Shown: positions 5,227 through 38,081, counted from the first letter of the whole stretch. The stretch: 63,952 bases of DNA, filler included, from Candidatus Woesearchaeota archaeon (GCA_047603125.1; 6 parts of 6 records of this genome joined end to end with filler, not necessarily neighbours in it); one strand, 5' to 3'. Made by a program: numbers and translations. Notes: generated by a model not told the origin, from the letters alone.

Positions 5227-7989
5227 ATGCTTGAAAATATTATAACGCATATTGAGTCCAAATCCTCTCGAGGAGAAATTCATGTTCATTTCACAGGTGG
5301 GAAAACAGTTGTGGTGAGTGATTGGCGCCATTATTTTCCGACTAGACCCCTTAATCGTGATGACCGACCACAATCACGTGACTTTGCTCGAGAAAAGTGG
5401 AAAACTATTACTGAGCAGCTCAGGCAGCCTGAGTTTTTATATCAAAAAGGAGAAAAAACATTTCGCCCATCGCAGGCTTTTCAGGATCGATATTGGATGG
5501 TTGGTGGGACATTCTTGCCAATGAAGTCTGCACCGAAACTACCAAAAGAATTTATTTTAGGAAAATATACATGGCAGGCAAAAAAACGACTTGGTATAGT
5601 GCCCGGTATGGTGGTTTTATTTGATCAAAAAACACAAGATACACTCGCGACTGTTGCACAATTTCGCGAAAAGCTCAGACAAGGACGAGCACAAGTTTAT
5701 GAACAATTCTCAAGCAAAGCTCAAGCAACACGTTTTATTAATCTCGCTGATGCGACGGGGGAAAACCACTATGCCTCAGAACTTTTGCAACAGATACGCT
5801 CATTACAACCACAAAGGGTCAAATTTGAACCGCGTTATTCTTCAGGGGTAAAATATGATGTTTGGTACGAGGTGTCAGAACAAGACGCGCAAGAACTGTT
5901 CTCAGATGCAACAGCTGTAACTGCTGACCAAATTCAAAGCGCACCTTGGATGGCTTTTGATATTGAAATACCGCTGTTTCGTCATCCACAAGAATCAAAG
6001 ATCAGTTGGGTTGGTGCTACATTTCGGGAAAATAATCAGCGTCAAAGGGTGGTGTATACGCTCCATGATGGTTCATATGAGGGTTTGGATGGTACTGTTT
6101 TACAATTTTCAAGCCAAGAAGAGCTTATATCTCGTTTTGCAAAAGATATTCAAGAATTTAATCCTATTTTTGTTAGTTCATTTAATGCGAATTTTGATTT
6201 TATGCAAATGCGTGAGACGGGTGCGTGGGATATAGGTGCACACCAGACACCTGCGCTCTATCGTGCAACAGCTCCGTTTTTTGAAAGAATAGGTGTCGGG
6301 TCGCGTATTGTTATTGATCCTATGCGTTTTATGCAAATTGCACGTTTTTTTGATCCAAATGCGAAGCTAGAAATGGCTGCAGGATTAGAAAAATCAATTT
6401 CTTATGATCAGATGGAGCAGTTAGAACGAGAAGCGTGTGCAGGTAATAAGCAAAGTGCAAGAAAAATCGCTTCATATCTTGTTGAGGATGTGAAAGGTTT
6501 GGAGTCGGTGTTATGCTCCAAACAGATGCATGATTTTTATACTGCGGCAAGTTGGATATGTGGTCAGTTTCAAATTTCTTTTGACTCTTTGGTACATAGT
6601 GCGCAAAGCGCGCGCGATATTGTTGACTTTGAGTTTTTCAAGAAAAATAAGATTTATCGAGGACATGTAGCGCCGAATCATCGCACGACGGCAAAAATAA
6701 AAAGAGATATGCGCTCGCTTGCCAAAACCCGGGCGTTTTTGGATAGCACCGCTTTGAAAAAAACAGGATTGTTTACAAATGCGCAAAAGGGATTTGTGAG
6801 TTTGCGCTCATTAGTTGGAAAAATAAAGGGCTCTCATGAAGCGTTTTATGATCATGTAAGTCGCCAGGATGGTTTTTTACGCCATGTGTTTGAGAGGTAC
6901 TATCTTGCGACGATGCGATACATGTTTGAGGATTTTGGTCAGTTTTTGAGAGAGCGAGATGATTTTCAAAAAAAATCGAATATGTCTGTAATAGATTTCT
7001 CTCCATTATATTTGAAAACGATTAGTGGACTCAGTCATCATCGGCTTTTTACGAAATTAGAAGAAAATCGCTATGATAGAAATTTGTTAAAACAATTTAT
7101 TCATGCAAGACCTGGTGTAATGAACATACTTGAGAGCAAACATATCTCTGTTGACACTTTTGGTCAGCTCTTATGTGACTATGTGCAACTTGAAAAAAGA
7201 GCAAAGCAATTTGGCGCAAAGCATGGTATTTTGCCCATTGCTGACTTTTCTGATTCGTCTGATGCACTAGAATCTCGTTTAAATAAAGGTATACAATCTT
7301 TTGAAAACCATCTTCGAGCGCAAGGAAGAACATTGCTTGGGATTTCGAATGCCTATGTGTATATTGACGGGCCGGTAGAACAAACATCGCAGTATGTTCC
7401 TCTAGAATCATTGGATGCGGTCTATATAAGTGATGGTATTTATTACAAAAAAAATGGATTTATTTCAGATAAAACGCTCACGGGGGAGCTTGCTCCAAAT
7501 TATGTTCGAAATGCATTTGAGAATAAGGTTTTTTCGCATATGCTAGAGGCAATTTTAACTGAGGACACAGAGCGTGCGTTGCAAATATATCGAGAAGCAG
7601 AAAAACGACTTCTCAATGGTATTGATTTTTCACAACTTGTGACATATAGTAAGGCAACGGATAGATATTCGCTCTATTGTGATTCTGGTCAGGTGCAGTT
7701 TATGACAAGTCAACAGAGTGCGCAAGCGTACCTTGAAGCTTCACACCAGCAAAGATTGGCACAGTGGGAGAAAACAAAAAAAGGGCCAAAACCAGAAATG
7801 CCTCAAATCCGAGATGATCAATTTGTTGATGAATACCGAGCAAGTAAGCCAGTTGTGCGCATTTGTCAGCCGTCTGATTTACATGTGAATAAAGAGCATT
7901 ATTTTCGAACATTTTCTACTCGTGCACAAGCTTTTTTAGAACCATTGACTTCTCAGATCTCATCATCGAGTCAACTGGAGTTGTTTTGA
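5227..7989 (+). CDS. PolB-derived protein with 3'-5' exonuclease domain and degenerate polymerase domain
   Basis: ExoI FDIE, ExoII FNANFDF, ExoIII YLVED; motif-A-like IDFSPLY; no YGDTDS motif C. Confidence 0.65.
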   Translation: MLENIITHIESKSSRGEIHVHFTGGKTVVVSDWRHYFPTRPLNRDDRPQSRDFAREKWKTITEQLRQPEFLYQKGEKTFRPSQAFQDRYWMVGGTFLPMKSAPKLPKEFILGKYTWQAKKRLGIVPGMVVLFDQKTQDTLATVAQFREKLRQGRAQVYEQFSSKAQATRFINLADATGENHYASELLQQIRSLQPQRVKFEPRYSSGVKYDVWYEVSEQDAQELFSDATAVTADQIQSAPWMAFDIEIPLFRHPQESKISWVGATFRENNQRQRVVYTLHDGSYEGLDGTVLQFSSQEELISRFAKDIQEFNPIFVSSFNANFDFMQMRETGAWDIGAHQTPALYRATAPFFERIGVGSRIVIDPMRFMQIARFFDPNAKLEMAAGLEKSISYDQMEQLEREACAGNKQSARKIASYLVEDVKGLESVLCSKQMHDFYTAASWICGQFQISFDSLVHSAQSARDIVDFEFFKKNKIYRGHVAPNHRTTAKIKRDMRSLAKTRAFLDSTALKKTGLFTNAQKGFVSLRSLVGKIKGSHEAFYDHVSRQDGFLRHVFERYYLATMRYMFEDFGQFLRERDDFQKKSNMSVIDFSPLYLKTISGLSHHRLFTKLEENRYDRNLLKQFIHARPGVMNILESKHISVDTFGQLLCDYVQLEKRAKQFGAKHGILPIADFSDSSDALESRLNKGIQSFENHLRAQGRTLLGISNAYVYIDGPVEQTSQYVPLESLDAVYISDGIYYKKNGFISDKTLTGELAPNYVRNAFENKVFSHMLEAILTEDTERALQIYREAEKRLLNGIDFSQLVTYSKATDRYSLYCDSGQVQFMTSQQSAQAYLEASHQQRLAQWEKTKKGPKPEMPQIRDDQFVDEYRASKPVVRICQPSDLHVNKEHYFRTFSTRAQAFLEPLTSQISSSSQLELF

Positions 7990-26052: not shown

Positions 26053-26207
26053 ATCCCTGTCATTTTTTATCACCAATTATAGTTTTTTAAACTATAATAA
26101 AAAATGCGGGGTTTAACATACAATCATAGTTGGACGTTTTTTGTGCGTCCTTATTAATGTTCGTATTTTTTGGAAAAAACTCTCGTTTCATCTACTAATT
26201 GCTTTTC

Positions 26208-26248
26208 AAAAAAGAGCACGCAGATCTGGCTGCAAGGTGCTCTTTTTT
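26208..26248 (+). repeat. Structured intergenic element, minimal copy
   Basis: AAAAAAGAGCAC-GCAG-ATCTGG-CTGC-AAG-GTGCTCTTTTTT. Confidence 0.7.
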
Positions 26249-26310
26249 CTTATTTTTTTAATGGAGTTAAAAACTCCGGATTTGTGTAAAAAATCGAATT
26301 TTTATTTTAC

Positions 26311-26405
26311 AGCAATATTACGATTAATTCAGACTCGCGTATCTTGCCGACGAGGCGCTGCATAAATCGCGCCATGTCGTAATGAGGCATCAAGGTAATA
26401 TTGCT
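26311..26405 (+). repeat. Structured intergenic element, divergent full copy (95 nt)
   Basis: AGCAATATTAC-GAT...GCTGCATAAATCGC...ATC-AAG-GTAATATTGCT. Confidence 0.8.
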
Positions 26406-26477
26406 TACTTCTTTTAATTTTTACACAAACCCAAAACCTCCTTAACATTTTTAAAGACTAGCGAATGTGCCATTTCT

Positions 26478-28667
26478 ATGTCCTATGAATTAATCATTAC
26501 AGAGAAACCATCCGCAGCTGAAAAAATTGCACACGCCCTTGCAGATCTCAAACCAGATAAAAAACGCGAGGGACAAGTAAGTTATTATGAAATTACACAT
26601 AATAAAAAACCAATTATTGTTGCCTGTGCAGTAGGACATTTATACACAGTAACTGAAAAAGAAAAATCTAAAGGGTGGACATATCCAATTTTTGATTTGA
26701 AATGGGAACAATCCTCCAAAGTCAATAAAGGTTCTGCGTTTACTTCTAAATATGTTTCTGTTATTAAAAAATTAGCAAAGGATGCAAATGAGTTTACGGT
26801 TGCAACAGATTATGATATTGAGGGGGAAGTGATTGGTTTAATGTGTGTTCAGTTTGCGTGTAAGCAAAAAGATGCAAATAGGATGAAGTTTTCAACTTTA
26901 ACAAAGCCTGATTTAATAAAAGCATATCAACAAAAAGCAAAAACACTTAATTGGGGACAAGCCCTTGCAGGAAAAACACGTCATGAACTGGATTGGTATT
27001 ATGGTATTAATTTAAGTCGTGCATTGTCTCTTGCGATTCGAAGTGCTGGTCAGTTTAAAATTCTCTCTTCTGGTCGTGTACAAGGTCCAGCATTAAAAAT
27101 CTTAGTCGACAAGGAAAAAGAAATTTCAGCCTTTGTCAGTGAACCTTATTGGCAGATTGAACTCTATTCAAAAAAAAACAATCAAGAAATTATTGCATTA
27201 TATACGGAAGAGAAAGTATTTGATAAAGAAAAAGCACAAAACGTGTATCAAACATGTAAAGATGCAAAAGAAGCAATTGTCCAAGACGTTCAAACGACAC
27301 AATTTAAACAGCAACCTCCAACTCCTTTTGATTTAACATCGCTTCAAGTAGAAAACCACCGTGTTCATAAGATAACGCCAAAAGTTACGCTCTCACTTGC
27401 TCAAGATTTATACATTAATGGATTTATTTCTTATCCGCGAACATCTTCACAAAAATTGCCAAAAGAAATTGGTTATACAAAAATTCTCAAAGAACTTTCT
27501 CGCCAGAGTCAATATATGGAATTGACAAATAAGCTATTAGCGCAAAAGACGCTTAAACCAAACGAAGGAAAAAAAACCGATGACGCGCACCCGGCAATTT
27601 ATCCGACTGGTCTTGTTCCTCAAAAGTTAACCGCACAACACCTCAAACTCTATGATTTAATCGTTCGCCGATTTTTAGCAGTGTTTGGTGAGCCTGCAAC
27701 GCGTGAGCGTATGAGTGCAAAATTAGAGGCAAATACAATTTCATTTTTAACAAAAGGAGTGCATACAGTTGAAAAAGGATGGCACGAATATTATGGGAAG
27801 TTTGCAATGTTTGAGGAAACAACATTGCCTGATTTAACAGTTGGTGAGAAATTACCGGTAGTAAAAATTGAAAAACAAGAAAAACAAACAAAGCCACCAA
27901 AACGATATACTGCTTCTTCTATTATTAAAGAATTAGAAAAGCAAAATTTAGGGACAAAGGCAACACGCTCAGCAATTGTTGAAAATTTATATGATCGGGG
28001 ATATGTGAATGAAAAATCAATACAGGCAACTGATATTGGTATAAAAACATGTGATATTTTGCAACAATATTGTCCGAAAATAATTGATCCGGCACTAACT
28101 CGTCAATTTGAAGATGAAATGGAGGATATTCGAACGCAAAAAACAACGCCTCAAAAAGTACTTGATCATTCAAAAGAGATTTTAAGTGACATCTTAACAG
28201 ATTTTAAGAAAAAAGAAAAGGATATTGGAAAGGCACTCTTGAATGCAACACGAGAAACTGTAGAGCAATTAACAACGATTGGACCTTGTCCTGTTTGTAA
28301 AGAAGGGACACTAAAAATAAAACGTGGGAAATTTGGTGAGTTCATTGCATGTGATAACTATCCTGACTGTAAGTCAACATATTCAATTCCAAAGGGGGTA
28401 AAGGCAAAACCAACTGAGCAAGTAAGCGAACAAGGAGATCCTATTGTAGAATTTGTTAAAGCTCGTTCAAAACCGGAGATGGTGACATTGACTGCACAAA
28501 TGCTTGGTTCAAAAAAAGTTGAAAAACTTAAAAAGAAATGTCCTACTTGTAAAACAGGTGATCTGCTCAAGCGCTCTTCGTATCGGGGAGAATTTATCGG
28601 TTGCTCAAATTATCCTAAATGTACGTATACTGAACAGATTGCAGTAGAGAAAAAAAAAGATGAATAG
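26478..28667 (+). CDS. topA: DNA topoisomerase IA
   Basis: ITEKPS, ATDYDIEG TOPRIM, SGRVQ, ISYPRT catalytic Tyr, two C4 zinc ribbons. Confidence 0.97.
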   Translation: MSYELIITEKPSAAEKIAHALADLKPDKKREGQVSYYEITHNKKPIIVACAVGHLYTVTEKEKSKGWTYPIFDLKWEQSSKVNKGSAFTSKYVSVIKKLAKDANEFTVATDYDIEGEVIGLMCVQFACKQKDANRMKFSTLTKPDLIKAYQQKAKTLNWGQALAGKTRHELDWYYGINLSRALSLAIRSAGQFKILSSGRVQGPALKILVDKEKEISAFVSEPYWQIELYSKKNNQEIIALYTEEKVFDKEKAQNVYQTCKDAKEAIVQDVQTTQFKQQPPTPFDLTSLQVENHRVHKITPKVTLSLAQDLYINGFISYPRTSSQKLPKEIGYTKILKELSRQSQYMELTNKLLAQKTLKPNEGKKTDDAHPAIYPTGLVPQKLTAQHLKLYDLIVRRFLAVFGEPATRERMSAKLEANTISFLTKGVHTVEKGWHEYYGKFAMFEETTLPDLTVGEKLPVVKIEKQEKQTKPPKRYTASSIIKELEKQNLGTKATRSAIVENLYDRGYVNEKSIQATDIGIKTCDILQQYCPKIIDPALTRQFEDEMEDIRTQKTTPQKVLDHSKEILSDILTDFKKKEKDIGKALLNATRETVEQLTTIGPCPVCKEGTLKIKRGKFGEFIACDNYPDCKSTYSIPKGVKAKPTEQVSEQGDPIVEFVKARSKPEMVTLTAQMLGSKKVEKLKKKCPTCKTGDLLKRSSYRGEFIGCSNYPKCTYTEQIAVEKKKDE

Positions 28668-29160
28668 AACACAATCAATTATAGGCATTTGGCATGTGCT
28701 AATAATTCTCGGTTTATTGATTCCTTTTATGATTGCGGTAATGGTGACTTCTTTTTATGTCTATTCAGTGTATAGTCCCCTCTGCGGTTGTCACATTCCA
28801 CTGTGGCTTATTATTATTGTTTTATCTATTAGTGGAATTCTTATTGGCACATTAACTTATTATATTTTAACAAAAAATCGTCTTAAAGAGAAAAGTATGG
28901 ATGCACAAGCAATTTTTTCCTTGCTGAGTCTGCTCGACAAAACACAACTTCTTATCTTAAAAGAACTTGTTTTGGCAAAAGGGCAGCTGACACAGAGTAC
29001 ACTACGAAAAAAAACTCAGGTGGACAAAGTGAAGCTGTCTCGTGCACTTAAGCAATTAGAGCAAAAAGAGATTATACAAAAGACTCAGAAAGGGATGACA
29101 AATACTATCAAATTAGACCTCCAAATTCTTACTGTTTTAGAGGGTTGTTTCAATAAATGA
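28660..29160 (+). CDS. Membrane-anchored winged-HTH regulator
   Basis: Two TM helices with a CGCH loop; C-terminal wHTH (QSTLRKKT...KVKLSRALKQLE). Confidence 0.8.
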   Translation: MNRTQSIIGIWHVLIILGLLIPFMIAVMVTSFYVYSVYSPLCGCHIPLWLIIIVLSISGILIGTLTYYILTKNRLKEKSMDAQAIFSLLSLLDKTQLLILKELVLAKGQLTQSTLRKKTQVDKVKLSRALKQLEQKEIIQKTQKGMTNTIKLDLQILTVLEGCFNK

Positions 29161-29198
29161 AACAAATATTTAAAAAGGGTTGTGACATACTCCCATAC

Positions 29199-30089
29199 AT
29201 GAAAAAGATATTGTTGCTTGCGTTATTCCTTTTGCTTGCGACTCAGCTAAGTTTTGCAGACCAAGAGATCATTGATGTTCCTCTTATTGGTGAATATGAT
29301 GTTTCCCAGGTACCACTGCTTGTGAGTACAATATTGATTGCAGCAGTGGACGGGGTGAATCCGTGTTCCATTTGGGTTTTATTATTCTTATTAGGTATGG
29401 TTCTTCATACTGGTTCTCGAAGAAAAATTTTACTTGTTGGTTCAGTATTTTTGCTTGTTACGGCAACAATATATGGAGTTTTTATTGCAGGCGTTTTTAC
29501 TATTTTTACCTTTATGAATCAAATTCAATGGATTATTTATATTGTCGCAGGTCTCGCGTTACTATTTGGAATTGTGAATATAAAAGATTATTTTTGGTTT
29601 AAAAAAGGTTTGAGTTTTACTATTTCTGACAAATATAAACCGAAACTTTTCAAACAAGCAAGAGGTCTGATAAAAACTGATAACACTTGGTTTTTAATAG
29701 GTGCTACAATCGTTATGGCTGCAGGAATTGCTATTATTGAATTACCATGTACGGCAGGTTTACCTGTTATTTGGTCTGGCTTACTTGCAAGTTCACAAGA
29801 GCAGATTCCGTTTTTATTATACTTATTTGTGTATGTCTTTATTTATTTACTTATTGAAATAATCATACTGGTAAGTGTTGTGATAACACTGCGCTCGATA
29901 AAAATGGATGAATTTAAAGGTCGCGCGCTCAAACTTATTGGAGGGGTTTTGATTACAGCCTTAGCAATTATTTTGCTTTGGGATAGAACACTCATGTATA
30001 GTATTGGTTCAGTATTTGCTATTATTTTTGGAGCTTTACTCATAAGTATCCTTATTATTGCAGGAGAGATACTTTGGAGGAGAAGATGA
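29199..30089 (+). CDS. CcdA/DsbD-beta-like transmembrane disulfide transporter
   Basis: About 7 TM helices plus signal-like N-terminus; two Pro-Cys motifs (DGVNPCS, IELPCTAG). Confidence 0.8.
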   Translation: MKKILLLALFLLLATQLSFADQEIIDVPLIGEYDVSQVPLLVSTILIAAVDGVNPCSIWVLLFLLGMVLHTGSRRKILLVGSVFLLVTATIYGVFIAGVFTIFTFMNQIQWIIYIVAGLALLFGIVNIKDYFWFKKGLSFTISDKYKPKLFKQARGLIKTDNTWFLIGATIVMAAGIAIIELPCTAGLPVIWSGLLASSQEQIPFLLYLFVYVFIYLLIEIIILVSVVITLRSIKMDEFKGRALKLIGGVLITALAIILLWDRTLMYSIGSVFAIIFGALLISILIIAGEILWRRR

Positions 30090-30454
30090 GTTTACCAAAA
30101 GATCGATTATATAATACAGATAGTACTTGGGTTATTGAAAAAGATGGTGTTGCGACACTAGGAATGGTTCAAGAGTCAGTTGACAAAGCACAAGATATAG
30201 TGTTTATTAATTTACCAAAAAAGAATGATCAATTAACAATTGGTAAAACATATGTCAGTGTGGAGTCGGTTAAATGGTCGGGAGAATTAGAGAGTCCGGT
30301 CTCGGGAGAGGTTGTTCAAGTAAATGATGTGCTCTTTGATCAGCCAGAACTTTTAAATCAAGATTCATACATAAACTGGATAGTCAAGGTTCGTGTAGAA
30401 AAAAAAGATACCTTATATGAGGCAAACGATGTACAAAATAAATATACAAAATAA
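30086..30454 (+). CDS. Glycine cleavage H-like lipoyl carrier protein
   Basis: VESVK lipoyl-lysine motif, SPVSGEVVQVN, PELLNQDSY..WI. Confidence 0.9.
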   Translation: MSLPKDRLYNTDSTWVIEKDGVATLGMVQESVDKAQDIVFINLPKKNDQLTIGKTYVSVESVKWSGELESPVSGEVVQVNDVLFDQPELLNQDSYINWIVKVRVEKKDTLYEANDVQNKYTK

Positions 30455-30464
30455 AAAACAAACA

Positions 30465-30914
30465 ATGCGTTTTCACTTATTCTTATTACTTGTAATAAGC
30501 GTTTTTGTCATGAGTGCATGCCAGTCACCAACTGGAAATGTTACAGGCAATCAACAAAATGATTATAATCTGACATCCTTGATAGAGACAATGGAGCAAA
30601 ATGAAGACAAGGTACAAGTGTATTACTTCTATGGTGAAACATGTCCTTTCTGTCAACAGCAAAGACCTGTGTTAGAACAATTAGAGCAAGAATATGACAT
30701 TCAAGTACACTGGTTTGAAGTATATTCGAGCCGTGAAAATCAGCAATTGTGGAGAGAAGTAGCAGATATTTATCAAACACAAGCGCGAGGAGTTCCCATG
30801 ACATTTATTGGAGACGAGTATTGGAGTGGATTTAATAATAGAGTTGCACAAGAGCTTGAGCAAAAAATACGTGAGTGTTTAGATGTAGGATGTGAGGATT
30901 TACTACAACAATGA
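30465..30914 (+). CDS. Thioredoxin/glutaredoxin-fold lipoprotein
   Basis: Signal with MSAC lipobox, CPFC active site, GVP cis-Pro motif. Confidence 0.85.
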   Translation: MRFHLFLLLVISVFVMSACQSPTGNVTGNQQNDYNLTSLIETMEQNEDKVQVYYFYGETCPFCQQQRPVLEQLEQEYDIQVHWFEVYSSRENQQLWREVADIYQTQARGVPMTFIGDEYWSGFNNRVAQELEQKIRECLDVGCEDLLQQ

Positions 30915-32140
30915 ATATAGTCATAGTTGGAGGTTCAACGGCAGGAGTTCAAGTAGCTCGAATGCTTCGATTCTATGATAAGAAATCTACAATAACAATT
31001 GTTGATTCTTCCCCACATACACAATATAGCCCTTGTAGTCTTCCGTATTTTATAGAAGGAAAAATTTCATACAAGGATTTATTTGTTTATGAGCAGTATG
31101 ATCAAGACACTATTTTGCTGCATAATAACACGACAATTACAAAAATAGAACCAAAACATGTAATCGGTGTGGATGCGCAGGGTAAAGAAAAGCTATTTTC
31201 GTATGATGTGCTGGTTATTGCAACAGGAAGTAGACCAAAACAAATACGTTGTCAAGGAAAAGCGCCACTTTTTTTAAAGACACTTGATGATGCAAAAAAA
31301 ATTAAAGATTCCTCGGGACCGTTTGTTATTTTAGGGGCAGGATATATTGGTTGTGAACTTGCTGCAAGTTTAGCAAAAAAGGGTGAGACTGTGCAGTTAG
31401 TGGAGATGCAAAACCAAGTATTGGCGCAATTGGATGCAGATATGAGTCAAATTGTTTTTTCTTATTTACAATCGTTAGGGGTAGAAATTTTTTTAGAAAC
31501 TTCGCTGGACTCTTTTCAAATAGACAAACAGACACTTATTCAAACTTGTGGCTTTGAGCCAAATACCCAGCTTCTTGAAGATAATAATTTTCCAATTCAG
31601 ACAAATGAGTTTTTACAAGTAAAAGAGAATATTTATGTGGTTGGTGATGTGGCAAAAGTCAAAAATAAACAAACACAAAAGTATGAGCATTCTTTTTTTG
31701 CAAATACTGCGATGATTCAAGCAAATATGGTAGTTTCTAATATTGTTGGAAAAAAACAAATATACCCTGGATTTTTGACAAATGCAATAAGTAAAATTGG
31801 TGATTTAGATGTTGGAATAGTTGGAACACGAACAGAAGAGGCATGTGTTTTTGCAAAATACAAGGGTTTTGATGCATATGTGAGTTGTGGTGGAAAAGAG
31901 TTGACAGTCAAACTCTTCGTAAATAAGGATGGAGTAATACAGCATGCCCAAATAATTGGATATAAGGAAGTTAGTGGAAGGCTAAATTGGATTGCGCACT
32001 GTATTGAGCATAGTCACACACTTGATGATCTTATTCGAGTCCAAACATGTTATAATCCCTGTGTTGCAACTATTCTTGACCCGGTGATTGAAGCTGCAAA
32101 AATTTGTCGCAAAAAACTCCTTTTATTACAGAAGAGGTAG
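30911..32140 (+). CDS. FAD/NAD(P)H oxidoreductase, Nox/CoA-disulfide reductase class
   Basis: VGGSTAG, SPCSLPY single redox Cys, ATGS, GAGYIGCE, VGD, C-terminal CYNP. Confidence 0.88.
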   Translation: MNIVIVGGSTAGVQVARMLRFYDKKSTITIVDSSPHTQYSPCSLPYFIEGKISYKDLFVYEQYDQDTILLHNNTTITKIEPKHVIGVDAQGKEKLFSYDVLVIATGSRPKQIRCQGKAPLFLKTLDDAKKIKDSSGPFVILGAGYIGCELAASLAKKGETVQLVEMQNQVLAQLDADMSQIVFSYLQSLGVEIFLETSLDSFQIDKQTLIQTCGFEPNTQLLEDNNFPIQTNEFLQVKENIYVVGDVAKVKNKQTQKYEHSFFANTAMIQANMVVSNIVGKKQIYPGFLTNAISKIGDLDVGIVGTRTEEACVFAKYKGFDAYVSCGGKELTVKLFVNKDGVIQHAQIIGYKEVSGRLNWIAHCIEHSHTLDDLIRVQTCYNPCVATILDPVIEAAKICRKKLLLLQKR

Positions 32141-32149
32141 GATTTTAAA

Positions 32150-32932
32150 ATGAGTGAAATTCCTCTCTATGTTGTTCAAAGACAAGGAATTTCTGCGTAC
32201 AATTTACATATGCTACAAAGAGATTTAACACAATATCTTGCGCAATACAAGCCTGGTACTGGCGTTGTTGGTTTTTTTGAATGTGAATCCACAATTTCTT
32301 TTGGAAATGCGACTCGAAGAAATAGTTTGAAACCGGGCTCTCAAACAGATGTGGATAGTCGTATTGAGAGTTTTTTTCAGACTGATTTATATTTTCCCGA
32401 TAGTGGTTTGATTCCTTTTATAAAGTCGGAAAGGGGTGGTGGTTCGACATATCTTGGTCCCGGTCAAAGAACTATTTTTTTTATACTGCCCATGGTAGAA
32501 GAAACTGTCGCGGGTTTTGATAGTTTTGTGAATTCTTTTTTAGAAACGACTGTAAAGGATGCTACCAAAAATGATCAAATTATTTCAGTTCCAAAAAAAG
32601 ATTTAATCTATGTAGATGAGCATGGTCTCGAATATAAGCTTGCTTCAAAAGGGTTAAGCTTTAAATTATATAATAATAGACTCTATTCTCAATTTGGTGT
32701 TTCAATTCATGTTCTTCGAGACAGTGTTGAAGGATTTGCAAGAGTGAACCCTTGTGGTTTTGAAAATTTACTTGTGACTTCGTGCCAGGATTTGAATTCA
32801 TTAGTAACTATGGAGAGCTTTGATACTGGCGCATATAACTATTTATCAAAACATTTTTCTAAACTTATCAGACCTGGGAGTCCAGCTAATTATATGCAAA
32901 AAAATGTGGATAACTATCTTTCGGGTCTATAA
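32150..32932 (+). CDS. LipB-like octanoyl/lipoyl transferase
   Basis: ERGGGSTYLGPGQ, KLASKG and VNPCG motifs. Confidence 0.8.
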   Translation: MSEIPLYVVQRQGISAYNLHMLQRDLTQYLAQYKPGTGVVGFFECESTISFGNATRRNSLKPGSQTDVDSRIESFFQTDLYFPDSGLIPFIKSERGGGSTYLGPGQRTIFFILPMVEETVAGFDSFVNSFLETTVKDATKNDQIISVPKKDLIYVDEHGLEYKLASKGLSFKLYNNRLYSQFGVSIHVLRDSVEGFARVNPCGFENLLVTSCQDLNSLVTMESFDTGAYNYLSKHFSKLIRPGSPANYMQKNVDNYLSGL

Positions 32933-33652
32933 TTGGTATATCCATTCTTTTTGAGCGTATTGCTGTGAGAATTGATGTGCAAGTTCTAAGTCTTCTTTCG
33001 TCCATGTGTATGGTGAAACTTTAAAACCTTTTGTAAGGCTGTTCTCTACTATGGAAATTGCTTTTTTGAATGATATATTTGAGAGCTCAGATATGCATGA
33101 GATTTTCTTTTTCTTTTCTGGAAGGCCTTTGTTATAATCGTTTTCTGGTCGTAGATATTTATTCATAAGGTCCTTTCTTTTTTTATACAAAAGTGTTCCC
33201 ATCACATAGACAACGCCTTGTCTTTGTGTTATTGCGCTTCCTGATATTTTTCCTTTTGCTGTAATAATGTCATTTATAGGTTTAAATTGGCTGTTAATAC
33301 CCATCTGCGCGAGGGCTTCTCTTATTTTTGCTGTTGCAAATTCATGGATGTCTTGAATATTTTCTGGAAAAAAAGTTCTTGGCCCGACAATTCCCCAACA
33401 AATATCATCGGGTGTCAGTACGACTGCTCCTCCTCCAGATTCTCTTCGTATGATGAGTGTTTCATTTATGGCTTCTTGGTTTAGAACATCTTTGATTTTT
33501 TGATTCACACCTATGCTGACGCAAATTTGATTCCATCCCGTCAGAGAAAAGTAGACTGCTGGTTTTTTTTTGACTTTTTCGATAAGAACTTGATTTAATC
33601 CAAGTCTTGTATAAGGGGAATAATATTGAAATGGTATGAGATAATAATCCAT
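32927..33652 (-). CDS. Lipoate-protein ligase family (LplA/LipM catalytic domain only)
   Basis: RRESGGGAV, INDI, KISGSA, GTLLY motifs. Confidence 0.88.
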   Translation of the reverse strand: MDYYLIPFQYYSPYTRLGLNQVLIEKVKKKPAVYFSLTGWNQICVSIGVNQKIKDVLNQEAINETLIIRRESGGGAVVLTPDDICWGIVGPRTFFPENIQDIHEFATAKIREALAQMGINSQFKPINDIITAKGKISGSAITQRQGVVYVMGTLLYKKRKDLMNKYLRPENDYNKGLPEKKKKISCISELSNISFKKAISIVENSLTKGFKVSPYTWTKEDLELAHQFSQQYAQKEWIYQL

Positions 33653-33711
33653 ATTTTTAGTGTTTTTTTAGCATTTAAATGTATTGTGTAAATAGTTTAT
33701 GAGATGAGAAA

Positions 33712-33806
33712 ATTGTAATGCGGTAATTTTGAACAGTTGTTCACTTTGCGAATTTCTCCGGCGCAAAGCTTTGCGAAATTCTGATTAAATGTCGAGCCAT
33801 TCTAAT
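33712..33806 (+). repeat. Structured intergenic element, degenerate full copy (95 nt)
   Basis: Shares TTTTGAACAG and TTGCGAATTTCTCCGGCGCA...GCGAAATTCT with 9937-10032; outer stem decayed. Confidence 0.85.
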
Positions 33807-33874
33807 TTTTATTGTCTTTAATGAAAATATCTAAAATCGTTCAATTTATATACCTAGTGTTCTCTTCTTTTTGT

Positions 33875-34264
33875 ATGGGATACGGGAAGATACTCTTGCT
33901 TTTAGTTGTTGCTATATTATTTGTTGCAACATTGGTTGCAATATTATATGATTCTTCACAAGAACCGATATTAGTATCAATACCTTCCCAGACATTTAGT
34001 GATTTTCAGGCTCAGCATCCTGAGATTGTAGTCATAGATCTTCGTACACCACAAGAATACTCACAAGGCCATGTTCCAGGTTCTATCAATATTGATTTTT
34101 ATCAAAGTGATTTTGAGCAAAGGTTAGATCAGTTGGATAAAAAACAAACATATGTCATATATTGTCGAAGTGGTAATCGTTCGAAGCAGGCCTTAAGAAT
34201 TATGGAATCGTTGGGATTTCTCACTGTCTACGAGCTTCATGAAGGCATTAGTCAGTGTTGTTAG
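33875..34264 (+). CDS. Membrane-anchored rhodanese-domain protein
   Basis: N-terminal TM helix; IDLRTPQEY, GHVPGS, YCRSGNRS motifs. Confidence 0.9.
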   Translation: MGYGKILLLLVVAILFVATLVAILYDSSQEPILVSIPSQTFSDFQAQHPEIVVIDLRTPQEYSQGHVPGSINIDFYQSDFEQRLDQLDKKQTYVIYCRSGNRSKQALRIMESLGFLTVYELHEGISQCC

Positions 34265-34826
34265 TCTCAAATGTTTTATTTACTTCAAGAACGTCCATAT
34301 TGTCAAAACCATTGAATTCCAGTATATTCACACAGGCATTTTTTTGTTCTAAATTGTCATCATAATCGTGGATGTTTCGTATTGTTTGTATGATTGCTTT
34401 ATTAATTCCGCTATGTGCAACAAGCAAAAGCGTATCATTTTTATGTTTGAAATAAAGATATTCGAGGAGAATTTTTGCTCGATTCATGAGTTTATCAAAT
34501 GTTTCTGCACCTATTGGTGGATTTGTTCTCCAATCGGGTCGTACTGATATTGGTTTTCCCTCAAGCTCTCCTAAATATGCCTCACGTAATAGCGGATTTA
34601 GATGAAGGGGTGTGGTTGGATATTGTTCTTGTAAGATAAGTGCGGTTTGATGTGCTCGCTGCAAGTCACTAGAATAAATTGCATCAAAATTCTTATCTTT
34701 TAACCCCTGTGAAGTACAGCAAACTTGTTCTTTGCCTTTTTGAGTCAATTCGCTTGGTAAGTAACCTTGCCAAAATCCATTAATATTACCCTGGGATTGG
34801 CCGTGTCGTACAAGGTAGAGCTTCAT
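34248..34826 (-). CDS. Histidine phosphatase family protein
   Basis: RHG, SSDLQRA, VAHSG motifs. Confidence 0.9.
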   Translation of the reverse strand: MKLYLVRHGQSQGNINGFWQGYLPSELTQKGKEQVCCTSQGLKDKNFDAIYSSDLQRAHQTALILQEQYPTTPLHLNPLLREAYLGELEGKPISVRPDWRTNPPIGAETFDKLMNRAKILLEYLYFKHKNDTLLLVAHSGINKAIIQTIRNIHDYDDNLEQKNACVNILEFNGFDNMDVLEVNKTFETNNTD

Positions 34827-34875
34827 AATAGTAAAAAACACAAGACTTTTTAAAAAGGTATTGTTGTGAATGCAT

Positions 34876-35361
34876 ATGAAATACTTACTTGTCGTCGGAG
34901 TACAACAAATGGCTGTACAACCACATTCTTCGAGATTTGTTCTGCTCAGTCACACACTTGAGCGAATAAATGTACTTATTCGTTTGCTTCGCAAAAAAGA
35001 GTACACTGTCGTTTTCTCTCAATATATTAGTGAGCAAATGGGAGAAACAAGTTGGGATGCCCAAATTGCAGCTGATATTCGTGAGGGAGATGCTGTTATT
35101 TCACATATGGGTGCAAATCCATTCTTTAAAAGTCAATTACAAACTGAGCTTGCGCTTGCATCAACAGTTATTATTTGTGGTGCTCATACAAATATTGCAG
35201 TGCGTGACGCTGCATGCACATTGTCTGATATGGGAAAACAAGTTGTAGTGGTCAGTGATTGTTGTTCAGCTAGTAGTCCAAATGTTCATCAATTTACTCT
35301 AGAAGATCTTTCTCATTCTCGAAAGAATGTGCGCGTTTGTTCATTGCAAGAATTGAGTTAA
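34876..35361 (+). CDS. Isochorismatase-like protein, catalytic residues apparently altered
   Basis: Fold motifs NPFFKS, ICGAHTNIAV, VVSDCC; the usual Asp, Lys and Cys appear as G, H and A. Confidence 0.7.
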   Translation: MKYLLVVGVQQMAVQPHSSRFVLLSHTLERINVLIRLLRKKEYTVVFSQYISEQMGETSWDAQIAADIREGDAVISHMGANPFFKSQLQTELALASTVIICGAHTNIAVRDAACTLSDMGKQVVVVSDCCSASSPNVHQFTLEDLSHSRKNVRVCSLQELS

Positions 35362-35457
35362 ATCAAGGATTTGCAGATTCTACAACTAATCTATTACTCG
35401 GTTTTTTCACTTTTTTAAACCAAAACTTATATATATTGCTAGATATTTTCGGTCTGG

Positions 35458-36399
35458 ATGAGCTTTTCCAAACATTTTCAAAACTATGTGACAAAGGATC
35501 CTTTTACTGATATTATCGGGCTTGCAAAAGTGAAGTCTCAACTGCTTTCTGCGTTATTAACCGATCGTCATGTTCTTATTATGGGGCAACCAGGTATTGG
35601 AAAAACAACATTGGCCAAAAATGTTGCAAAACTGCTTCCCGATGTTGGTGGGAAAAAGGGCTTGGATCGATTTATTCGTATACAGGGCTCGCCGGATTTG
35701 ACTGTAGAGGATTTAATTGGTGATATTGACCCACAAAAAGCATTGGAGTTTGGTCCTTTGAGTAAAGAAGCATTTGTTCCTGGAAAAATTTTTCAGGCAA
35801 ATGAAGGGATTTTATTTTTTGATGAAGTGAATCGTTGCTCAGAAAAGCTGCAAAACGCGTTACTTCAAGCACTCGAAGAAGGAGTTGCAACGATTGGTTC
35901 CTATGATGTAGACTTACCTGCTAATTTTTTATTTATAGGAACACTCAACCCTCAGGATACATCAACTGAGAAACTCAGTGATGCGTTTTTGGATCGTTTT
36001 GATGTCATTGAGATGAGTTTTCCTGAAACTCCTCAAGACGAAGTGAAAATTTTGCAAACACATGGTTTGAAATTATCTGTTGATATGCCACCAAAATTGG
36101 TTCAGGCAATAGTTGATTTTGTTCGCTCGTTTCGAGATCCGTCCCGAGTAAAAAAAATGCCAGGTGTTCGTGCTAGTTTAGGTTTATATGAGAGAGCACA
36201 AGCAAATGCGCTTCTTAATGGCAATAAAGAAGTCACCGTGTATGATATTCAACAAGCAATCCCTTCTGTTATTACGCACAGAATTGAACTAAAACCCTCT
36301 CTTAAATATTCAACATCGCTGGACAAATATGTGATGCAAGAATTTGAGCGTATTATTTCAGGAGCAAATATACAATCGGCAAAAGGTGATTTGACCTGA
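35458..36399 (+). CDS. MoxR/ChlI-type AAA+ ATPase
   Basis: GQPGIGKT Walker A, FFDEVNR Walker B, TLNP sensor, LDRF Arg finger. Confidence 0.9.
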   Translation: MSFSKHFQNYVTKDPFTDIIGLAKVKSQLLSALLTDRHVLIMGQPGIGKTTLAKNVAKLLPDVGGKKGLDRFIRIQGSPDLTVEDLIGDIDPQKALEFGPLSKEAFVPGKIFQANEGILFFDEVNRCSEKLQNALLQALEEGVATIGSYDVDLPANFLFIGTLNPQDTSTEKLSDAFLDRFDVIEMSFPETPQDEVKILQTHGLKLSVDMPPKLVQAIVDFVRSFRDPSRVKKMPGVRASLGLYERAQANALLNGNKEVTVYDIQQAIPSVITHRIELKPSLKYSTSLDKYVMQEFERIISGANIQSAKGDLT

Positions 36400-37594
36400 C
36401 GGGAGTGCAGGAGAAGATGAGGCAGAGCCTGATATTGATAAAATAGATGAGCCGTTAATTGAAAATACCTCTGATCAAAACAACCCTCGGGGTGGAGACC
36501 CGACAGGAAATTCATTAGGAACAGAACCGGTTGATCAAGAACGCCGTGATGGTCAATTTGTTGAAGAAATGTACAACCAAGGCATGTCTTCGTTTGTCCC
36601 TGATTCGCTTTTTTCTCAAATGACGACGCAATTTTCTCAAACACGTCAACAATTTGGTGATTCCATCCTGCAATATGCAACTGGTTATGACGCAGATTAT
36701 TTACAAAGAAATATTAAGATTCCTGAGTTTCAAAAACAATTACAAAAACAAATGAATCAAAAAGCTCGCGAGCTTGAAGATAAGGATTTTATTGATGATG
36801 AGGGAAGTCTGACACAAACGGCAAAACAGGCAGCATTACTCGAGCTTTACATTCGTGAACTTGATGCGCTGCAGGCAAAAGGTTTTTTTGGTTCACACAC
36901 ACACAATATCGATCATGTGTATGGAGAAAGACAAGATGTTCGTCCATACAAAAAAGGTGACCGATTTCGAGATGTTTCTATAAAAAAAACAGCCCACACT
37001 GCTTTGCGCAGACTTCATACATCCATTCAACCGGGAGACTTTCGTATTTCGACTCGTCAATCTCGTGGGGATATTACGGTTTTATATGCAATTGATGCCT
37101 CAAGTTCGATGAGAGGAGAAAAGATAGCTGCTGCAAAACGCGCAGGGATGGCTCTTGCGTATGCAGCAATACAAAATAATGATTCTGTTGGTCTGATTGT
37201 CTTTTCTGATACGGTTGTCACTCATACGCAAATCACAAAAGACTTTCAAGAATTTGCACATGCGCTTGTAAATGTAAAAGCACAAAAGCAAACAGATCTT
37301 GCATGTGCAATTGATAAATCTATAGAATTATTTGAAAATACACAAGGTTCAAAACATGTCATTATTATTACAGATGCCGAAGGTACTGTTGGCGATGATC
37401 CAAAAAAGCGTGCAATGGATGCTGCATACATGGCAAATGAACATGACATTTCTCTCTCTATTGTCGGTGTTGGCTTAGAAGATGATGCATTTGCAAGGCA
37501 GGTGGCTGAAGTGGGAAAAGGCAAACTCTATATTGCAAAAAATATTGAAAAAATAGATTTACTTGTCTTGCAAGATTATGATCAGCTTAGTTGA
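36398..37594 (+). CDS. Acidic linker plus VWA domain (ChlD-like C-terminal part), probably reached by +1 frameshift; first ATG at 36569
   Basis: MIDAS DASSS...T...ITD; frame open from 36395 with no ATG/GTG/TTG before 36569. Confidence 0.8.
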   Translation, partial: DGSAGEDEAEPDIDKIDEPLIENTSDQNNPRGGDPTGNSLGTEPVDQERRDGQFVEEMYNQGMSSFVPDSLFSQMTTQFSQTRQQFGDSILQYATGYDADYLQRNIKIPEFQKQLQKQMNQKARELEDKDFIDDEGSLTQTAKQAALLELYIRELDALQAKGFFGSHTHNIDHVYGERQDVRPYKKGDRFRDVSIKKTAHTALRRLHTSIQPGDFRISTRQSRGDITVLYAIDASSSMRGEKIAAAKRAGMALAYAAIQNNDSVGLIVFSDTVVTHTQITKDFQEFAHALVNVKAQKQTDLACAIDKSIELFENTQGSKHVIIITDAEGTVGDDPKKRAMDAAYMANEHDISLSIVGVGLEDDAFARQVAEVGKGKLYIAKNIEKIDLLVLQDYDQLS

Positions 37595-37979
37595 CAAGAA
37601 GGGAATGAATGTTTTCTAATTTATCGTTGTGGTTTTTTCGCTCAACGATTCGCTCTTTTTTATTATAGCGTGGAATAATATGAAGATGCACATGTGCGAC
37701 TTCTTGACCTGCAATTGGTCCATCATTAATTTCAAAGTTAAATGATTTGCAGTTGAGTTTTCTTTCAAGCATGTGTGCAATTTCTGAGGCAATGGGCATC
37801 ATTTTTCGTAGATATGGTTCAGGTAAGTCGATAATACTTGCCACTTCTATTTTTGGTATCAAAAGTGTATGCCCTTTCGTATTTGGATGTGCATCAAGTA
37901 TTGCAATGAACTGTTTATCTTCATAGAGAATATGTGCAGGGATTTCTTTATCTATAATTTTTGTAAAAATGGAAGCCAT
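37587..37979 (-). CDS. HIT family hydrolase
   Basis: SIFTKII, GHTLLIPK, HVHLHIIPR motifs. Confidence 0.93.
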   Translation of the reverse strand: MASIFTKIIDKEIPAHILYEDKQFIAILDAHPNTKGHTLLIPKIEVASIIDLPEPYLRKMMPIASEIAHMLERKLNCKSFNFEINDGPIAGQEVAHVHLHIIPRYNKKERIVERKNHNDKLENIHSLLVN

Positions 37980-38020
37980 GTAGTAAGAGTAATGTTTTAA
38001 CTTTATAAATATTGCTTCTA

Positions 38021-38081
38021 TTTAGTTAGCGGTAAAAGAAAAGCATAACTCCTTGGCGTGAAACCAAAAATCAGAGTGATT
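38021..38081 (-). repeat. Structured element, 3' half plus shared flank, truncated at contig end
   Basis: Reverse complement is near-identical to 23354-23414. Confidence 0.85.

Follow-up and report, generated by a model that had tools for sequence, protein, structure and literature searches.

To our knowledge, transmembrane thiol relays of the CcdA/DsbD type are all fed by the NADPH-thioredoxin system, and reductant chains that run through a lipoyl carrier have been described only inside the cell. The subject of this work is a locus that appears to join the two: eight open reading frames (ORFs) at 28660..34264 of a 63,952-nucleotide window (the whole stretch of DNA that was analysed), including genes for a CcdA-like two-cysteine membrane protein, a stand-alone H-protein-like lipoyl carrier, an exported thioredoxin-fold lipoprotein and a flavoprotein. 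The module is real and conserved, and apparently undescribed. We put at about 0.5 the probability that electrons would pass in it from NADH through the flavoprotein and the lipoylated H-protein to the membrane cysteines and on to the outer thioredoxin, a route of which we infer every electron step. The genome that holds the window (1.12 Mb in 70 contigs; completeness 100, contamination 0.98) is Woesearchaeota-like, and the sources name close homologues of its membrane protein Candidatus Woesearchaeota.

The closest described systems each share part of this arrangement. With the CcdA/DsbD/ScsB relays (for example CcdA, PDB 5VKV) it has in common a membrane domain of six helices, where the two conserved cysteines fall in register in helices 1 and 4, an exported thioredoxin-fold partner and a predicted outward transfer. 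It departs from them in that the Pfam DsbD models barely detect the window family (DsbD_2 matches 1 of 53 relatives, at E 0.004), the thioredoxin domains are usually fused N-terminally, and the cytoplasmic protein linked to the relay is a lipoyl carrier, not thioredoxin; the genome keeps a separate canonical ccdA. Nyvltova and colleagues reportedly described, in 2016, an incomplete glycine decarboxylase of Trichomonas hydrogenosomes (H and L proteins) together with OsmC. There too an H-protein without P and T is reported to be a reductant shuttle behind a flavoprotein, with a soluble peroxidase as client and a true L protein as reductase, whereas here the H-protein has a membrane relay as its constant partner and the flavoprotein is mostly of the Nox/CoA-disulfide-reductase (CoADR) type.

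The Lpd - lipoyl E2 - AhpD and Ohr/OsmC chains (PMC8945050), in which AhpD is reduced by lipoylated proteins, offer the same NADH-driven lipoyl reductant, and a gene for an AhpD-type CxxC protein (CMD) stands directly behind the H gene in many related loci; those chains borrow the E2 of a dehydrogenase or stay cytoplasmic, with no membrane relay, and a CMD gene is absent from the genome of the window. In Hyphomicrobium, GcvH_1 lies beside OsmC and is its proposed donor (10.64898/2026.10.01.755906). The GcvH-L/LplA2/SirTM operon of Staphylococcus aureus (PMC12440151) likewise has, in an operon for oxidative stress, a lipoyl carrier that stands alone and comes with a ligase of its own; no sirtuin or macrodomain was seen here, and GcvH-L gives its lipoate to E2, which is mostly missing here. 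LbpA of the sHdr systems (PMC6067878, PMC10332631) is also a dedicated carrier of the GcvH-like kind, with the genes for its lipoylation in the same cluster, and sulfur-relay genes occur in a few of our loci; the LbpA cysteine pair is lacking here, LipA is found instead of LipS1/S2, and no Hdr-like genes were recognised in the fetched loci, no genome-wide search for them having been made. The GCVH-like operon of PMC12419801 is unrelated to this cluster. No description of the cluster was found in the full-text literature, with subscription journals mostly outside that scope and supplements unread; the genome tables of PMC10332631 may list the lipoate genes.

Conservation of the cluster and its lipoyl carrier

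The eight ORFs lie on a single 12,029-base contig (C11, window 26053-38081), and all are where an earlier note on this DNA had placed them. The tight packing which that note had described at 29199-32932 is also present, with ATGA overlaps at 30086-30089 and 30911-30914, a gap of 10 nt between the H and thioredoxin genes and one of 9 nt between the flavoprotein gene and a LipB-like gene, and the motifs of the locus (NPC/LPC, VESVK, CPFC, the LipB-type motifs, the CGC of a winged-helix regulator and the CRSGNRS of a rhodanese) are all in place. GC content is even along the contig (0.34-0.40), and hence there is no sign of recent insertion.

The carrier, encoded at 30086..30454 on the plus strand (GCV_H 2e-27), is of the E[AS]xKWSG type and has its lipoyl lysine, Lys63, in VESVK; this lysine is invariant (53/53). 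It is the sole full-length H-protein of a genome in which no match to GcvP, GcvT or E2 was found, and is thus a lipoyl carrier without the classical job. The earlier note had seen no gcvP/T or 2-oxoacid dehydrogenase gene nearby, and this extends to the whole genome. An H-protein working with GcvP/T elsewhere, which would have counted against the module, was not found there, and the 54 other cluster genomes have GcvP in no case, E2 in 3, LpdA over its cut-off in 5 and TrxB in all 54. The protein falls below the NCBIfam cut-offs for GcvH (TIGR00527, 82 against 116), and in a quick tree from a short alignment the glycine-cleavage H-proteins stand on a separate branch (SH-aLRT 94); judged by these comparisons, the cluster H-protein is a dedicated carrier lineage. 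In a 301-genome sample of the phylum its clade was found in the same order only, at E 1e-36; by source names it is present also in Pacearchaeota, Aenigmatarchaeota and bacteria of the candidate phyla radiation (CPR).

That the H-protein is a glycine-cleavage leftover, or a lipoate relay for 2-oxoacid dehydrogenases in an incidental neighbourhood, has precedents in the GcvH of Bacillus subtilis, a lipoyl relay (PMC6067878), and in GcvH-L, which passes lipoate to E2 subunits (PMC12440151). Given the GcvP and E2 counts, the separate H lineage and a gene order fixed in 30 families, this account is already largely refuted and keeps a negligible probability.

The cluster itself withstood the conservation check. 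A PF01597 search of the order (401 genomes) found 99 full-length H-proteins, spread over 95 genomes, with 37 partial and weaker matches set aside; the tallies include the unpublished genomes G215, G140, G321, G217, G342, G213, G251, G190, G280 and G378, none of which is among the loci described below. At least 54 of the 99 full-length H genes (in 52 genomes) lie directly behind a same-strand membrane gene, which is more than chance. Not one of the 32 best-scoring H genes does so; six of these were inspected, and four are in gcvP clusters, one is with lipA at a contig end and one is in a lipA-lplB-lplA-lpdA run. After locus retrieval there were 57 CcdA-H loci in 55 genomes, the window included. 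Their usual order, kept across the 30 families, is a membrane winged-helix (wHTH) gene, a thioredoxin-CcdA-like gene, H, a thioredoxin or CMD gene, the Nox-type flavoprotein gene, and the genes for LipA, LplA and LplB. Where at least 4 kb of downstream sequence was available (40 loci), the wHTH was present in 28, a thioredoxin lipoprotein in 14, a CMD protein in 16 (one an ArsD fusion), LipA in 21, LplA in 36, LplB in 25, a CPTM-motif lipoprotein in 11 and ArsR in 9. The one CMD protein tested exceeds the ahpD_dom cut-off. A motif scan of metagenomes, the loci of which may overlap the surveyed genomes, gave 43 loci, 42 with an H gene; the membrane gene is adjacent in 34 of these, 6 are cut by a contig end, and 2 are without it. 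An entire cluster is held by L113, a record titled Saccharibacteria.

Further forms of the carrier were met with. A second H type, shorter (about 100 aa) and marked by an MKGT motif, occupies the same cluster in L027, L029 and L069-L075 together with a membrane subfamily of its own, and a relative at L028:8162-8464 has Glu in place of the lysine. In G010 (L024:3349-7192) an H-lipA-lplB-lplA-lpdA run has no membrane gene. The slot after H is elsewhere occupied by DUF169 (L036:6927-7688, L042:5982-6743, L204, L217), a short-chain dehydrogenase (L195, L208) or a HesB/IscA Fe-S carrier (L069:1255-1614).

The membrane protein and its outer thioredoxin domains

The membrane protein, at 29199..30089 on the plus strand, has a signal peptide and 6-7 helices; an in-frame ATG at 29157 is an alternative start, and would create a third ATGA overlap, with the stop of the wHTH gene. 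Its Pro-Cys motifs, NPC (Cys56) and LPC (Cys184), both hold cysteines that are invariant in 53/53 relatives. The mean number of Lys and Arg residues in loops 1, 3 and 5 is 3.4, 9.5 and 3.4, against 0.4-0.8 in the remaining loops, and from this charge bias loops 1, 3 and 5 are predicted to lie inside, and the thioredoxin domains and the N-terminus outside. Signal peptides are predicted for the exported parts.

One or two N-terminal thioredoxin domains are fused to the membrane protein in 51/57 loci. Three of the six loci without the fusion are cut by contig ends, and in the other three (the window, L016 and L068) a stand-alone membrane gene is followed by a separate gene for a thioredoxin lipoprotein. 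The window copy of the latter, at 30465..30914 on the plus strand, has thioredoxin-fold Pfam matches, CPFC at residues 60-63 and a GVP loop; it carries a lipobox-like SAC (Cys19), and most relatives have a lipobox-like Cys. Such a lipoprotein is a separate gene in 21/57 loci. In the position after H, the thioredoxin lipoprotein occurs alone in 17 loci, CMD alone in 16, both in 2 and neither in 16; mutual exclusion of the two was considered and set aside, the pattern following lineages. Another exported lipoprotein, some 205 aa long and with a conserved (Y/H)CPTM motif, occurs in 13/57 loci (for example L056:1403-2029 and L019:12399-13019), has no Pfam or NCBIfam match, and is a candidate client of the outer thioredoxin.

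How closely the membrane protein is related to CcdA is less clear-cut, and here the evidence is weak enough to weigh against our reading. The window protein has no Pfam or NCBIfam match above cut-off, and SfLAP matches 3 of its 53 relatives. An hhalign comparison with the true CcdA of the same genome put both cysteines in register at E 0.002, with a probability of only 13% and a template of three rows. The structural model (predicted local distance difference test, pLDDT, 85) has CcdA 5VKV tied first among its matches, at Z 8.8 and a root-mean-square deviation of 4.8 over 204/224 residues; a Z of 13 is advised for helical bundles, and the unrelated permease LysP ties with it at Z 8.8. Its Atlas neighbours are SfLAP, DsbD_2 and DsbD_TM clusters. 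At E 0.001 Foldseek found nothing matching in the PDB, and a profile run against the sequences of solved structures stayed empty at E 1; neither outcome is proof of a new fold. The protein may be taken to work like CcdA; membership in that family is not proven.

The association between membrane protein and H-protein is a matter of degree. A membrane-domain match was found in 276/401 genomes, far wider than the H-protein, and four further genomes, in a check that covered 50 of 74, have the membrane gene and, for about 1.5 kb around it, no H gene; both facts tell against a relay that needs the carrier. Adjacency to H is a lower bound, the best 150 of 324 places having been listed. The best-scoring membrane homologues come from 62 genomes, 42 of them with an adjacent H gene, and 16 of the other 20 carry an H-protein elsewhere, these kin not being independent; in weaker bands the corresponding figures fall to 12/40 and 1/30 (the distant one), and to 43/349 overall. 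Hence the closest membrane subfamily tracks H-proteins, and the wider family does not need them. Membrane and H distances also correlate (rho 0.51, reached in 0 of 2000 permutations); linked inheritance explains this, and we dropped it as evidence of interaction. In L090 and L097, from gcv-type genomes, the wHTH, thioredoxin-CcdA-like and CMD genes stand together with no H gene of their own, which is what borrowing of the glycine-cleavage H-protein would lead one to expect.

These observations bear on a different account, in which the cluster is a co-regulated thiol-stress operon with two branches, the flavoprotein and lipoyl-H serving cytoplasmic acceptors (AhpD-like proteins, ArsM/ArsC, small thiols) and thioredoxin serving the membrane relay. 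Consistent with it are the wide spread of the membrane family without H, TrxB in 54/54 cluster genomes and trxA in that of the window, CMD directly behind H in about 15/40 loci, ars genes adjoining several clusters, and the proposal of a GcvH-like protein as donor to OsmC (10.64898/2026.10.01.755906). The link between membrane and H genes is nevertheless the most constant one, usually with overlap; 24/40 loci are without CMD, and the window genome, with none, has no visible cytoplasmic client for H; and among close membrane homologues the tie to H-proteins persists without linkage (the 16/20 above). We consider the two-branch operon unlikely, if the readiest of substitutes for direct feeding of the membrane protein by the lipoyl arm.

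Flavoprotein, lipoate supply and the route of electrons

The flavoprotein (30911..32140, plus strand; Pyr_redox_2 3e-41) is of the Nox/CoADR type, with an active-site YSPC (Cys42) and an NADH-type fingerprint. Its best NCBIfam model is CoA-disulfide reductase, below cut-off (TIGR03385, 214 against 579), and its nearest solved relatives are NoxA-3 (6pfz) and CoADRs, the CoA-persulfide reductases 8a56 and 3ntd among them; Cys42 shares an alignment column with the Cys residues of 6pfz and 3cgb. A single Cys with a C-terminal YxP pattern recurs in 33/36 related flavoproteins and, by a loose pattern, the acidic NADH-type fingerprint in 35/35 readable ones. The earlier description of the enzyme as single-Cys is right for the active site and wrong for the protein, which has 10 cysteines. 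Two candidate assignments were rejected. The window enzyme is not LpdA, having YSPC and CYNP without the CxxxxC and His-Glu pair (TIGR01350, 81 against 409), and the Cys before the C-terminal YNP is not a required resolving cysteine, being present in only 19/36 enzymes by hand count. In L056 (G243), by comparison, a true LpdA (CxxxxC, HPHPTIVE; TIGR01350, 492 against 409) lies in the cluster, with no Nox there. The presence of LpdA in the usual Nox place is the best hint that the flavoprotein acts on lipoyl-H, and the enzyme is a predicted lipoyl reductase. G028 has no Nox in its cluster, and has LpdA without E2 or GcvP. Other observations on these genes are a flavoprotein gene in two ORFs (198 and 252 aa) beside lipA with an N stretch in G049 (L018:5274-6639), which may be an assembly fault, an orphan lpdA adjoining a pyruvate:ferredoxin oxidoreductase-like gene in G028 (L272:5061-6452), and a lipA-lpdA pair in G155 (L274:3698-5924).

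A role for the flavoprotein in lipoate synthesis, feeding the radical-SAM enzyme LipA as proposed for LipT, or in removing O2, with the thioredoxin system reducing lipoyl-H, would fit G094, which has the cluster with TrxB alone, and LipT is the proposed electron source for the insertion of sulfur (PMC10332631). By hand count in the 40 loci, Nox and LipA occur together in 16, Nox alone in 14, LipA alone in 5 and neither in 5. The presence of one is thus independent of the other, and this speaks against a role like that of LipT; moreover, the genome of the window has Nox and no lipA, and LpdA occupies the Nox slot in L056, so that we rate this possibility as highly improbable. The lipoyl protein might also carry sulfane sulfur as LbpA does, with the flavoprotein as persulfide reductase and the membrane protein and a rhodanese exchanging sulfur with the outside. 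The CoA-persulfide reductases among the solved relatives, the YeeE and DsrE/F(H) genes inside some clusters (L081, L111-L113), and the membrane-anchored single-domain rhodanese flanking the window copy (33812..34264, plus strand, divergent from lplA; Rhodanese 1e-19, Cys118 in CRSGNRS) all suit this idea. The two conserved LbpA cysteines (PMC6067878) are, however, missing from the cluster H-proteins: the window protein has no Cys, and no Cys column exceeds 9 of 53. The YeeE/DsrE loci are few, all have lipA, and may supply sulfur for lipoate synthesis. The rhodanese, which the earlier note had counted in the module, was seen in none of the other loci: BLASTP at E 1e-4 brought up no relative across L016-L232. 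A sulfur relay is accordingly given little credence, and lipoyl-based electron transfer is the reading followed here.

Lipoate supply in the window is unusual. At 32927..33652, on the minus strand, lies an LplA catalytic domain without the LplB domain (LplA-B_cat 1e-28); lplA is inverted here and co-directional in most relatives. LipA or LplA lies within 6 kb in 36/40 loci by script count. A divergent LipB-like acyltransferase is encoded at 32150..32932 on the plus strand (RGGG, Lys163, and Cys202 in NPCG; LplA-B_cat 9e-7); against LipB models it scores E 1e-16, below cut-off, and the stop ends of its gene and of lplA overlap convergently by 6 nt. In G007 a LipB-like gene 39% identical to it likewise converges on lplA, the pair lying on a different contig from that genome's core, with RGGG, Lys163 and NPCG retained in both proteins; no further match was found in the fetched loci or the protein database. 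The earlier note had made it part of the module; it is in no other locus, and is a local addition. In some archaea an LplA by itself is unable to adenylate lipoate. The copy in this genome is a reduced version, which would depend on scavenged lipoate and the unusual LplA/LipB-like pair.

In the proposed route, LplA (with or without LplB) or LipA would place lipoate on the invariant lysine; the genes are there, and their activity we infer. The Nox/CoADR-like flavoprotein, or LpdA where present, would reduce the lipoyl disulfide with NADH. The action of LpdA on lipoyl-H is established chemistry; that of a Nox-type enzyme is not. The dihydrolipoyl arm would then reduce the membrane cysteine pair, as cytoplasmic thioredoxin does for CcdA, which would be the key new step, and by analogy may also reduce an AhpD-like protein where one is present. 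The membrane protein, for which the topology is supported, would pass electrons to the fused or lipoprotein thioredoxin domains outside, and these would act on surface thiols, by repair or isomerisation, or discharge electrons onto disulfides outside. The chain gains support because AhpD-like genes and one true LpdA lie inside related clusters. The earlier note had the H-protein replacing thioredoxin, which is not supported for the whole cell: besides TrxB in every cluster genome, this one has a cytoplasmic WCGPC trxA, trxB and the canonical ccdA, the last on another contig. The search of the bin thus came out divided, lipA, gcvP/T and E2 yielding nothing and trxA and trxB being present. Driven by NADH, the module would work alongside the NADPH-thioredoxin system as a branch of its own, and would be no replacement for it.

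Several further facts weigh against this route. TrxB being universal in the cluster genomes, thioredoxin could feed the membrane protein. Nox is present in 30 of the 40 loci and missing from 10; G094 (a single contig, 99% complete) has the cluster and neither a Nox-type nor an LpdA match; H-Nox pairs without the membrane gene occur in L079 and L082; and G243 has E2 elsewhere, so that the single case of L056 is not conclusive. In the window genome no lipA match was found, and LplB was detected neither by its own profile nor by PF10437, which also missed the LplB of G094; lipoylation here is therefore not assured.

The main doubt, on the direction of flow, comes from the outer thioredoxin domains, which have CPHC in 54/85 and the GVP loop in 53/79, a combination that we take to be an oxidising DsbA signature. 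Electrons might then run inward, DsbA-like outer domains oxidising surface thiols and the membrane protein passing electrons to lipoyl-H and through the flavoprotein, which resembles NADH oxidases, to O2 or NAD+. On the other hand, the outer domain scores as glutaredoxin/thioredoxin-like and is shorter than DsbA, the genome already has two VKORs with DsbA-like proteins for oxidative folding, and the LpdA of L056 and the AhpD-like genes suit a reductant chain. A DsbA-like dithiol lies at about -0.12 V, and from there to lipoamide the flow would be uphill. Outward flow is favoured because of lipoamide at -0.29 V (PMC6067878), the potentials of NADH and DsbA, and the separate VKORs; inward flow we regard as improbable.

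Regulator, neighbouring genes and biological meaning

The gene at 28660..29160 (plus strand) encodes a membrane-anchored winged-helix regulator (DUF7343/MarR) with, by hydropathy, two helices, a CxC loop between them (CGC, residues 42-44) and a C-terminal wHTH. It adjoins 36/57 CcdA-H loci, the loop being CxC in 27, CxxxC in 5 and neither in 4 of the 36, and is a conserved part of the module. Judging from the loop, it likely senses the thiol or metal state outside. A second membrane wHTH of the family (G000:C36:749-4668, in the window genome) stands in divergent orientation to genes for a P-type ATPase of the heavy-metal kind and a membrane protein with an HMA domain, and the wHTH is also paired with P-type ATPases in L098 and L102; the regulator family may sense metals. 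The TATA-like TTTAAAAA at 29169-29176, pointed out in the earlier note, is no more frequent than chance predicts (19 copies in the window, 28.9 expected), and was dropped as a part of the module. Scans with bacterial models for promoters (31 against 23.6 +/- 5.6 expected) and terminators (3 against 2.9) were at chance.

In several genomes arsenic genes (ArsR, ArsM, ArsP, ArsG, ArsC-like, an ArsD-CMD fusion, ArsA) follow directly behind the cluster (L017:1279-5520, L018:1-3588, L019:13748-16501, L062, L081), and ArsG is itself a DsbD_2 protein with two PC motifs. Dithiols bind As(III), and a link of the cluster to arsenic handling is possible. YeeE and DsrE-family genes stand between the thioredoxin lipoprotein gene and lipA at L113:8345-10346, L081:6867-8221 and L111:9071-10419, the L113 insert also having DsrF- and TusB-like genes. 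Behind the thioredoxin-CcdA-like gene of L101 lies a gene (7192-7953) for prolipoprotein diacylglyceryl transferase (LGT, E 2e-79), an enzyme unusual for archaea; similar ORFs are found in L093, L094 and L096, from archaeal genomes. A plasmid search gave one match. Upstream of the locus in the window is a DNA topoisomerase I-like gene (26478-28667, labelled by sequence inspection), which overlaps the wHTH start by 8 nt, and downstream (34248-37594) are a histidine phosphatase, an isochorismatase and an AAA ATPase and vWA pair, the last two labelled by inspection.

What the module would mean for these organisms depends on the route from NADH to the outer thioredoxin. Tentatively, and with less confidence than for that route itself, we suggest that electron export in ultra-small archaea, and in some bacteria of candidate phyla, may run on lipoate, with the H lineage feeding an uncharacterised family of two-cysteine transporters directly and the Nox/CoADR enzyme acting as a lipoamide reductase of a new kind. 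If true, this would be the first trans-membrane thiol relay powered by NADH and a swinging lipoyl arm, and would imply two novel activities: a lipoamide reductase of the Nox type, and a membrane transporter that accepts a lipoyl donor. It would explain why many minimal genomes keep "gcvH", lipA and lplA without gcvP/T, genes that annotation takes as broken glycine cleavage, and would add a lipoate-dependent function in organisms that otherwise have no need of lipoate. For fermenters, which lack a respiratory chain, it could be a means to reduce surface or host disulfides and regenerate NAD+.

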